Below, piece by piece: positions 5,242 to 6,803 of a stretch of 6,803 nt of DNA; position 1 is the stretch's first letter; the number at the start of each line of letters is the position of its first letter. A program made the position numbers and the translations under genes. Source of the DNA: a virus (taxonomy: Duplodnaviria; Heunggongvirae; Uroviricota; Caudoviricetes); the IMG/VR virus record IMGVR_UViG_2778261347_000004; one strand, given 5' to 3'. The notes below the pieces were generated by a model. That model was not told the origin of the DNA. It saw only the letters and a program-made list of their open reading frames with translations, and did no database searches.

Positions 5242-5282
5242 GGCTCTTTAACATTGATGGGATTGTCCCGCCGAAATGCGGG
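5242..5282 (+). promoter_or_regulatory. nutL: boxA GGCTCTTTAACA (5242-5253) and boxB hairpin CCCGCCGAAATGCGGG (5267-5282)
   Basis: About 40 nt downstream of the predicted pL start; boxB is identical to the nutR copy. Confidence 0.65.
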
Positions 5283-5294
5283 AACCAAAGAGTA

Positions 5295-5376
5295 GTTGGC
5301 TTTGGGGTGACGTGAAGTGCAGCTGCAAGACGGCAACCGGAAGATAAGCACGCGGCGCGTCACCGCCAAAGTCAAT
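5295..5376 (+). other. Long imperfect RNA hairpin in the N leader, candidate RNase III / translational control element
   Basis: 5' arm 5300-5312 (CTTTGGGGTGACG) pairs with 3' arm 5358-5371 (CGTCACC-G-CCAAAG) as 13 bp with a one-nucleotide bulge, extendable with G-U pairs to 5295/5376; the 3' arm ends 5 nt before the N Shine-Dalgarno GGAGG (5381-5385). Confidence 0.45.
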
Positions 5377-5390
5377 CATCGGAGGTCAAC

Positions 5391-5663
5391 ATGACAGTAG
5401 TCATTACATATCTGGCTGACGATAACGCCAGAAATCGCCGCAGAGCACGCAGACAGGCTCAACGTGAACAGGCAATGCAAGAACAGCGATTGGCACGAAA
5501 AATTGCGCTAAAGCTCTCTGGTTGCGTCAGAGCAGATAAAGCAGCATCACTCGGAAGCCTTCGCTGCAAGAAGGCAGATGAATGCAGTGGAAGTATTTGC
5601 CTGCCAAACGTAGCCATTTACGCGGCAGGCTACCGGAAATCAAAACAACTGACGGCGAGGTAA
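5391..5663 (+). CDS. N: N-like transcription antitermination protein with N-terminal arginine-rich motif, 90 aa
   Basis: First gene after pL/nutL; GGAGG Shine-Dalgarno; arginine-rich motif NARNRRRARRQAQREQ resembles lambda N (QTRRRERRAEKQAQWK); C-terminal tail ...YAAGYRKSKQLTAR resembles P22 gene 24 product as recalled. Confidence 0.85.
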   Translation: MTVVITYLADDNARNRRRARRQAQREQAMQEQRLARKIALKLSGCVRADKAASLGSLRCKKADECSGSICLPNVAIYAAGYRKSKQLTAR

Positions 5664-5665
5664 TT

Positions 5666-6028
5666 ATGGGTCAGGAAGAAAAATATGAGCTTAAAAAGCT
5701 CATTGGAGAAGACGCCATAGAAGAAATTGCAGCATTAACAACAGCTATAAAGAATATTAGGTATGCGCTAAATACGCTTATCTCCTCATGCGACAAAAAT
5801 AGCAGGGAATTTTTGATACTTGGCGCAGCTCTAGGAATAGTTGATGCGGCAACGCTTCACCTAATTACTCATGACGATATTCTTATTGAGCCGTATGAAA
5901 CATTACTGCTTGTCAGGCAAAAAATGGCTGATGCCGCAGCAAATGGAGACCTTCAACTTTACATCGACTTAAGGAAAGTATTAAGGCGAATGGTCAAAAC
6001 TGAAGGAGATATCCCCCTGACAAAGTAA
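5666..6028 (+). CDS. Hypothetical protein, 120 aa from ATG 5666, second gene of the pL operon
   Basis: ORF-track ORF 5582..6028 overlaps N by 82 nt; the internal ATG 5666 has GAGG 5 nt upstream and starts 2 nt after the N stop codon; predicted soluble, mostly helical; no recognisable motif. Confidence 0.55.
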   Translation: MGQEEKYELKKLIGEDAIEEIAALTTAIKNIRYALNTLISSCDKNSREFLILGAALGIVDAATLHLITHDDILIEPYETLLLVRQKMADAAANGDLQLYIDLRKVLRRMVKTEGDIPLTK

Positions 6029-6058
6029 GGGGGTGAAGAGGCCATTTCAGGAATAAAA

Positions 6059-6553
6059 TTAATAATTTGTCAGCGGCGGTACATATACAGGCTTAGGGTC
6101 TGGCGCTCTATACATCCGGTATTCATTCTTACAGCGAGGACATGAATGCACAAAGAACCCATTAGATTTTATAGTAACCGTGCTTGGTTGAAGTATCGAT
6201 ATTTTATGTTCGCCGAAGCAATGTGCACAAAGGTTATGCTGCTGAATAGAAGGATCGGAATGACTCTTAGGTCGATACACGACAGAACCACCTTCAGTTG
6301 TATGAAGTTCATAATTCTCAGCTTGCACAACAAACATCTTGATTTTTCTATTTTCATCTCGAAGCTTCATTGCGATCTCCTTCTCGGCCTGATAAAGGCC
6401 AGAGAGCTCCGCATTAAGCATCTGTAAGTCAGTTATTCTTTGGTGTAGATCACCAATAGCTTTAGCGATAACAGCATCGTCTCTGGTTTCTTTTATTGTC
6501 TTCAGCAGATCATAAGCCTGTTTCGCGGCAGTTATACCAGATAACACATCCAT
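6059..6553 (-). CDS. Hypothetical protein, 164 aa, N-terminal coiled-coil-like region plus C-terminal CxxC-X25-CxxC zinc ribbon; oriented against the pL operon
   Basis: ORF track; ATG 6553 with AAGAGAG upstream (minus); C-terminal CAHC...CPRC pair; convergent with the gene at 5666..6028 with only 30 nt between stops. Confidence 0.65.
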   Translation of the reverse strand: MDVLSGITAAKQAYDLLKTIKETRDDAVIAKAIGDLHQRITDLQMLNAELSGLYQAEKEIAMKLRDENRKIKMFVVQAENYELHTTEGGSVVYRPKSHSDPSIQQHNLCAHCFGEHKISILQPSTVTIKSNGFFVHSCPRCKNEYRMYRAPDPKPVYVPPLTNY

Positions 6554-6569
6554 ATAAATTACTCTCTTA

Positions 6570-6614
6570 CTGTAGGGGTAAGAGGATTTTACTATTTTTC
6601 TCGCTGTAGGGGTA
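6570..6614. repeat. Two exact copies of 11-bp direct repeat CTGTAGGGGTA (6570-6580 and 6604-6614) upstream of the zinc-ribbon gene
   Basis: Exact 11-mer twice, 34 bp apart, between the minus-strand ATG 6553 and the divergent plus-strand gene at 6754; they flank a candidate minus-strand -10 (TAAAAT, plus 6585-6590). Confidence 0.6.
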
Positions 6615-6753
6615 CACGAGAACCACCGAGCCTGATGTGGTTAAAAGACAGGCACAATCTTTACTACCGCAAGCCACGCAGTGAAATGGGTGTGACTTGT
6701 GTTGGTCGCCAGAAAATGAAATTAGACAGCAAACCACTTATTTGAGGTGAGAT

Positions 6754-6803
6754 ATGACAAAATCATGGAGCGTACCTTTTCCTGAATCAGAAACTGAACA
6801 TGA
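6754..6803 (+). CDS. Hypothetical protein, 5' end only (continues beyond window end); N-terminus MTKSWSVPFPESETEH
   Basis: ATG 6754 preceded by GAGGTGA Shine-Dalgarno; frame open to window edge. Confidence 0.4.
   Translation, partial: MTKSWSVPFPESETEH

Follow-up and report, generated by a model that had tools for sequence, protein, structure and literature searches.

The ring interacting pore 1 protein (Rip1) was reportedly characterised by Patel and colleagues in 2026 (Nature 651:1060) as a prophage-encoded, pore-forming anti-phage defence. In this study, we compared this and related systems with an open reading frame (ORF) on the minus strand of a 6,803-nucleotide stretch of viral DNA (Caudoviricetes; IMG/VR record IMGVR_UViG_2778261347_000004), which is referred to as the window in its whole length and which, judged by its sequence, is a lambdoid prophage early region. 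The ORF is an allele of the gene hkaP of phage HK620. Rip1 is encoded by prophages as an anti-phage protein and was found in a prophage of P. aeruginosa, where its gene is flanked by those for the small and the large terminase (PMC13434031). It is non-toxic on its own, and escape mutations were found in the portal for Pseudomonas phages and, for E. coli phages, in the small terminase (PMC13434031; PMC12908700). Cryo-electron microscopy (cryo-EM) revealed an 11-mer small-terminase ring encircled by 12 Rip1 monomers, whose N-terminal part is an amphipathic helix and whose C-terminal half touches the ring, and such complexes make pores in liposomes and cells, leading to premature lysis of the infected cell (PMC13434031; PMC12908700). 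Rings are also recognised by RAZR (ring-activated zinc-finger RNase), which was published together with Rip1 and is a small immune protein whose zinc-finger domain assembles around large phage rings, e.g., the portal, and whose specificity is set by a variable region of the zinc finger (Zhang et al. 2026; PMC13017515).

Sequence and predicted fold place the product of the ORF in the Rip1 family, as a diverged member. A phmmer search against the sequences in PDB resulted in a sole significant match, namely chain L of entry 9oox, labelled "ring interacting pore 1 (Rip1)" (E 1.8e-10), in which query residues 3-146 were aligned with chain residues 14-156, both proteins being 164 amino acids (aa) long. 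A profile of 21 enterobacterial homologues matched the same chain with an E value of 1.3e-17. According to its description, entry 9oox (released on 2026-02-04) shows Rip1 of Escherichia phage HK446 in complex with the small terminase of phage T6, solved by cryo-EM. Structure prediction pointed in the same direction, as a Foldseek comparison of the AlphaFold2 model with PDB at E<=0.001 yielded two matches only, 9oox_M and 9oox_L, both with a probability of 1.00 and the former with a template modelling score of 0.70, normalised to the target. BLASTP of the ORF protein revealed 28% identity to HK446 Rip1 (HK446_037; E 4e-14) and 27% identity to JBD30_030 of a Pseudomonas phage (E 1e-16), and the ORF protein, HK446 Rip1 and JBD30_030 all matched phrog_1244, a PHROGs entry that has no function label, over most or all of their length (E 8e-51, 2e-53 and 3e-61, respectively). 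The JBD30 homologue is located on the opposite strand between a DUF1804/helix-turn-helix (HTH) DNA-binding protein gene in the position of the small terminase and a large terminase gene (match to phrog_38, E 6.5e-139), followed by that of a Mu-type portal, and this position agrees with the location of P. aeruginosa Rip1 given in the review (PMC13434031). Overall, the ORF protein resembles a characterised Rip1 significantly over most of its length, has the Rip1 architecture (a protein of c. 160 aa, amphipathic helices at the N-terminus and a C-terminal domain), and is encoded by a prophage as a transcription unit of its own amid other phage genes. RAZR entries were absent from the sequence and fold matches in PDB, and the combination of an RNase effector with a zinc finger was not found in the ORF protein, the N-terminal half of which is purely helical. 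A PADLOC match of the coiled-coil region to Cas10 (E 0.0035) was dismissed as compositional.

The original prediction, made from the letters of the window and a list of its ORFs, had described a 164-aa product with a helical, coiled-coil N-terminal half, a C-terminal CxxC-X25-CxxC zinc ribbon and a strong start context. The ORF call and the homologues confirmed the gene, which is clearly genuine and not a chance ORF, since 34 homologue clusters were found at 48-99% identity, an exhaustive profile search revealed 2133 cluster representatives of the family at E<=1e-3 (262 at E<=1e-10), and the ORF was present in 66 of 5426 complete E. coli genomes, in 65 of these 66 copies at a nucleotide identity of at least 99%. 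In the AlphaFold2 model, built on 21 homologues (mean predicted local distance difference test score 82.5), helices at residues 3-22 and 26-80 precede a small beta-rich C-terminal domain. The helical half held, and amphipathic, putatively pore-forming helices describe it better than a generic coiled coil. These are moderately amphipathic (hydrophobic moment 0.3-0.5), and a search of the protein sequence for a transmembrane segment found none. The cysteine spacing had been given exactly; C109, C112, C138 and C141 lie in the C-terminal domain together with a conserved SILQP motif, and all four are invariant in the alignment of the 21 enterobacterial homologues, where they belong to 27 invariant positions. 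Among 55 diverse members of the family, C109, C112 and C141 do not vary, and at least 90% retain each of C138, Y81, G89 and the SxLQ motif. The family varies mostly in loops 97-107 and 124-137 and in the C-terminal tail, the helices and the four-cysteine (Cys4) scaffold being conserved, and this pattern suggests that the loops and the tail may form a diversifying sensor surface. The start context was overstated in the prediction, as the Shine-Dalgarno-like motif and its spacing (Table 1) are moderate. Within hkaP, we also noticed a perfect AAGGAG 6 nt upstream of the in-frame ATG of M62 (6382-6368, minus strand). A start at this position would yield a 103-aa product lacking most of the pore-forming helices and recalls esc within sieB, but this esc-like internal start is probably due to chance, residue 62 being not conserved (M, G or V) among the homologues.

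The separate upstream region that had been postulated for the ORF proved to be real. About 105 bp 5' of the ORF (about 6554-6660) are c. 99% identical to the region upstream of HK446 rip1, the two proteins themselves being 28% identical, and the stretch is also conserved before the homologues of Salmonella and Pantoea. A DNA search with it resulted in 142 phage records, including lambda and P22, which match at 86-87% identity upstream of sieB, and in the reference record of P22, both the promoter of sieB and the start site of its RNA are annotated on exactly this stretch. Both copies of the decamer ACCCCTACAG in this region are invariant in six of six aligned phages; the 26-nt leader is predicted to be unstructured, and an Rfam scan of the whole window at E<=0.1 gave no match. 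Like HK446 rip1, which lies on the opposite strand directly after N and carries the GenBank note "similar to HK620p16" (hkaP), the ORF follows the arrangement of SieB-type loci, i.e., an opposite-strand gene after N with a psieB promoter. P22 sieB is listed among prophage-expressed exclusion functions in PMC10883804, and by homology hkaP would have a sieB-type promoter of its own that is active in the lysogen. That the ORF runs against pL was likewise predicted correctly, with pL, nutL and N on the opposite strand, and the idea of a lysogen-protective prophage defence gene gains support from both the Rip1 family membership and the homology to the sieB-type promoter.

We consider it probable, judging from sequence and model, that HkaP is a single-protein, prophage-encoded, ring-triggered and pore-forming abortive-infection defence of the Rip1 family. 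In a lysogen, hkaP would be transcribed from its sieB-type promoter while pL is repressed, and the protein would accumulate in a soluble and harmless form. When an infecting phage assembles its small terminase or portal into packaging rings, HkaP would bind around such a ring with its C-terminal Cys4 domain, which would gather about a dozen copies, the N-terminal amphipathic helices would form a membrane pore, and the cell would be permeabilised before progeny mature. Ring-templated oligomerisation, pore formation and defence are here ascribed to HkaP by analogy to the published Rip1 work, and the analogy to sieB suggests that the rings of the resident phage itself would not trigger it.

Several points weigh against this interpretation. 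HkaP shares only 27-28% identity with the two Rip1 proteins that have been characterised or solved structurally, and the first c. 25 residues of the ORF protein are less hydrophobic than those of HK446 Rip1. No significant family was found for the protein in Pfam, NCBIfam or PADLOC v2 (2023), and an independent curated assignment is lacking because these collections hold no model for the family. The mechanism of Rip1 was taken from secondary sources, namely a 2026 review (PMC13434031), a meeting report (PMC12908700) and the title of 9oox. Finally, a scan for sigma-70 consensus sequences detected no minus-strand promoter upstream of hkaP, the -35 region being poor, so that the promoter was called by its homology to the one annotated in P22. 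The low identity and the less hydrophobic N-terminus also feed the serious rival, namely that the diverged allele has another trigger or mode of action: HkaP would be a Rip1 homologue by descent and act as an exclusion or abortive factor with a different trigger or effector mode, or on packaging or lysis timing of the resident phage instead of on invaders. Since family variation is concentrated in the two loops and the tail, partners of HkaP could differ indeed. However, most of the protein is aligned, the Cys4 and SILQ scaffold is conserved along with the helix lengths, no fold other than 9oox is matched by the model, slot and promoter are those of HK446 rip1, and a lysogen-expressed promoter suits late functions of the resident phage poorly. 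We therefore regard such a different role as unlikely and prefer a ring-triggered, pore-forming defence.

To describe the slot in other phages, at least 120 viral contigs with the promoter core were surveyed, and the cargo was assigned by BLASTP to a SieB or Rip1 reference; the following numbers refer to the 120 contigs listed. The core TCGTGTACCCCTACAGCGAGAA, followed by the second CCCCTACAG, occurs in the IMG/VR loci from L055 onward and corresponds to 6570-6613 (minus strand) in the window. CCCCTACAG, the nine-base core of the second ACCCCTACAG, was found at a nearly fixed offset in 113 contigs, whatever the cargo, and the -10 hexamer was always TAAACT, TAAAAT or TATAAT. SieB-type cargo was present in 86 contigs and Rip1-type cargo in 22 (15 with the HK446 allele and seven with the HkaP allele), while four contigs carried proteins of 177-184 aa rich in transmembrane segments, one of them with a weak match to a SieB family (phrog_6399) and another with none. 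One further contig (L055) harbored an 83-aa protein without a PHROG match, and seven revealed no substantial ORF behind the core. The core thus precedes at least three unrelated kinds of cargo (SieB variants, the two Rip1 alleles and the 83-aa protein), and rip1 and sieB are alternative cargoes of one conserved promoter slot.

In addition, five viral contigs (L070, L076, L116, L140 and L166) join window position 6041 directly to 6575 and thus lack exactly 533 bp (6042-6574) carrying the leader and the hkaP ORF, with hkaQ kept. The two sides are joined within an imperfect direct repeat, CCTCTT(C)ACCCC, one copy of which lies at each end of the cassette in the window, and where the cassette is missing, the promoter directly faces hkaQ and N in antisense. 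Other homologues have different neighbours, as the original prediction had suggested to check, and are nearly always antisense to lytic genes. The homologue of an Enterobacter prophage lies between the Q antiterminator and holin genes, that of PhiR29 between yfdP and cI, and that of vB_EcoM-606R2 adjoins the repressor gene and has the same promoter element, each of the three being antisense to its flanks. In a rough count over about 30 distinct loci (flanking ORFs of at least 90 aa), the flanking coding sequence was mostly on the opposite strand. Tentatively, the c. 105-bp promoter with its ACCCCTACAG repeats might be a recombination-prone "defence slot" of lambdoid and related phages, in which unrelated abortive-infection effectors (SieB types, two Rip1 alleles and the 83-aa protein) are swapped as cassettes. 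The repeats would then serve as exchange or regulatory sites, the presence or absence of the 533 bp would be the footprint of an exchange, and the ring that triggers HkaP would differ from the triggers of the HK446 and Pseudomonas Rip1 proteins. We rate this combined picture as possible but rather doubtful. The shared sieB-type promoter with its cargo survey and the precise 533-bp presence/absence polymorphism may be new.

Since five contigs are precisely without it, the cassette is evidently dispensable, which could also fit a silent or decaying moron, conserved only as a hitch-hiker of prophages that spread recently and without function at present; the near-identical copies in the 66 E. coli genomes are uninformative on selection in this regard. 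Intact homologues of 150-170 aa at 45-79% identity, however, were identified in Salmonella, Serratia, Yersinia, Pantoea, Hafnia, Edwardsiella, Sodalis and Enterobacter, and their 27 invariant positions across these eight genera, together with the 2133 representatives of the family, render a functionless passenger very improbable. As to the zinc-ribbon transcriptional regulator or anti-sigma-like factor considered in the original prediction, zinc ribbons and long helices are known in some such proteins and sub-threshold Pfam zinc-ribbon matches were obtained (e.g., Zn_ribbon_SprT, E 0.014), but no regulator family matched significantly in Pfam, NCBIfam or PDB, and by sequence as well as by fold, significant matches were obtained to Rip1 alone, so that this reading has no support and is the least credible of the alternatives.

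With respect to its distribution, the window is closely related to phage HK620, with 97% DNA identity over 5103-6654 and 99.3% over 5300-6654, and the ORF protein is 99.4% identical to the hkaP product (AAK28864.1; WP_000382838.1). The HK620 record (AF335538, 2001) notes hkaP as "putative superinfection exclusion protein", and the gene is also carried by HK629 and HK630. From 5300 to 6803, the window is 100% identical to the Shiga toxin (Stx) 1a-converting phage Stx1a_10051, and several of the E. coli genomes carrying the ORF belong to O26 or other Shiga-toxin-producing strains. In all 30 records inspected out of the 66 matching E. coli genomes, the gene is annotated as "hypothetical protein". 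A literature search for HkaP, HK620p16 and phrog_1244 gave nothing relevant, and no experimental work on HkaP was found in the literature covered. In E. coli E2865 of bovine origin (NZ_AP018808.1; locus L006, 4016-4995), hkaQ and hkaP are 100% identical to those of the window, and the annotation gives N as a truncated pseudogene, so that this prophage has kept the defence gene while its early left operon may have ceased to run. A mosaic joint relative to HK620 was observed immediately after pL (window about 5095-5200; positions 3796-3900 of locus L001). Operators and cI/cro of the window represent another immunity type than those of HK620, the cI proteins being unrelated apart from the HTH, and from about 5198 on, nutL, N, hkaQ and hkaP are 97-100% identical.

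The features of the window are compiled in Table 1.

Table 1. Genes and sequence elements annotated in the window.
Feature	Position	Strand	Remarks
DnaB-like helicase gene	845-2221	-	
O-like replication protein gene	2277-3005	-	
cII	3189-3554	-	
cro-like gene	3577-3822	-	
cI-type repressor gene	3883-4620	+	
pL promoter, TTGACC-17-TATCTT	5168-5196	+	Source of converging early transcription
N antiterminator gene	5391-5663	+	First gene of the pL operon; Pfam N_peptide, E 1e-15
hkaQ, 120 aa	5666-6028	+	phrog_7374 (no function label); pL-sense, converges on hkaP
Imperfect direct repeat, downstream copy, CCTCTTCACCCCC	6029-6041	-	
hkaP allele, coding sequence, 164 aa	6059-6553	-	ATG start; no longer in-frame start
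Predicted 5' leader of 26 nt, ACCCCUACAGUAAGAGAGUAAUUUAU	6554-6579	-	Shine-Dalgarno-like AAGAGAG 8 nt before ATG
Decamer ACCCCTACAG, second copy	6579-6570	-	Predicted +1 to +10
Imperfect direct repeat, upstream copy, CCTCTTACCCC	6575-6585		
Predicted transcription start (+1)	A6579	-	Aligned to the annotated P22 sieB RNA start site
Conserved sieB-type promoter block	6580-6660	-	Homology in alignment
-10 element, TAAAAT	6591-6586	-	Mapped through alignment
Decamer ACCCCTACAG, first copy	6613-6604	-	-35/spacer part of the promoter

On the plus strand, pL is followed by nutL and N. The operators flanking pL (OL) have a TATAACC motif in common with the OR region (3806-3880), so that pL is controlled by the resident repressor. 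P22 sieB is under antisense control by sas RNA. By analogy, N-antiterminated convergent transcription from pL, or a sas-like antisense RNA, might lower hkaP expression after induction, as the original prediction supposed, the sas control of P22 sieB being the only precedent. Near the 5' end of hkaP, no plus-strand promoter was detected, and a sas-like promoter was not identified. On the pL-sense strand, a candidate hairpin at 6563-6585 (9-bp stem, -10.5 kcal/mol, z -1.8) is followed by AUUUUACUAUUUUU as a U-rich tail and might act as a weak intrinsic terminator that stops unmodified pL transcripts at the promoter, the indications for it being weak. The hairpin around the second repeat does not belong to the predicted hkaP mRNA, as the latter starts within it. 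Downstream of the hkaP stop codon, no convincing minus-strand terminator was found.

The gene hkaQ accompanies hkaP in seven of seven phage records, and we considered it as a dedicated partner or Esc-like self-immunity factor. It was rejected as a required partner because a 64%-identical homologue adjoins a different opposite-strand gene and because the five contigs without hkaP have kept hkaQ. The different gene, found in loci L014-L016 (about 4430-4714, minus strand, in L014), encodes 94 aa with a weak GhoS-like Pfam match and lacks the core of the sieB-type promoter; it may be a further alternative cargo at the slot. The longest ORF for hkaQ (5582-6028, plus strand, 148 aa) starts inside N in another frame and is named "antitermination N domain protein" (P0184) in some public records. 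Since HK620 annotates the 120-aa form from 5666 and the PHROG match covers only residues 29-148 of the longer form, the latter is probably an annotation artefact.

Directly 3' of cI, the window contains an ORF of 98 aa (4661-4957, plus strand), the product of which has a hydrophobic N-terminus followed by a charged helical part and belongs to phrog_18389 (no function label), with weak, sub-threshold matches only in Pfam and PADLOC. A strong, bidirectional, GC-rich terminator-like hairpin (4962-4981) follows it. In lambda, the corresponding position after cI is occupied by rexAB. The 98-aa ORF is probably co-transcribed with the repressor gene and may be another lysogen-expressed gene.

Our analysis suggests a likely function for a gene that is labelled as hypothetical in E. 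coli genomes and in the model phage HK620. It leads to the prediction that lysogens exclude phages whose small terminase or portal rings fit their HkaP allele. The gene hkaP was recorded with the HK620 genome, its function being guessed from its position; that of the family was established in 2026, and the general picture set by that work on Rip1 remains unchanged here. HkaP and HK446 Rip1, which share the promoter at 28% protein identity, constitute a natural pair for mapping determinants of specificity, and the DNA signature GTGTACCCCTACAGCGAG ... ACCCCTACAG offers a simple means of finding further lysogen-expressed defence genes.

Compared to the known systems, SieB of lambda and P22 occupies the same slot as the ORF (N, then the opposite-strand cargo, then the promoter) and has a homologous promoter with two ACCCCTACAG repeats, but the proteins differ. 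P22 SieB belongs to phrog_1301/6399, whereas the window protein matched only phrog_1244 and showed no similarity to SieB or its two PHROG families; SieB is a hydrophobic membrane protein of about 190 aa, and hydrophobic segments abound in the SieB-like cargo inspected, unlike in the window protein, which has no transmembrane segment. RAZR shares the principle of ring-templated assembly with Rip1, though its effector is an RNase and not a pore. HkaP of HK620 is essentially the same gene as the ORF, set in a phage with a different cI/cro immunity region and with a sequence that diverges beyond window position 6654. The Rip1 proteins of HK446 and the P. aeruginosa prophage likewise consist of N-terminal helices followed by a C-terminal Cys4 domain, with the same length of 164 aa in the case of HK446. 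The window protein departs from them in loops 97-107 and 124-137 and in its C-terminal tail, and the window, unlike HK446, harbors hkaQ as an extra pL-sense gene between N and the opposite-strand ORF. Apart from that, both Rip1 genes are, like the ORF of the window, encoded by prophages and antisense to the surrounding lytic genes.

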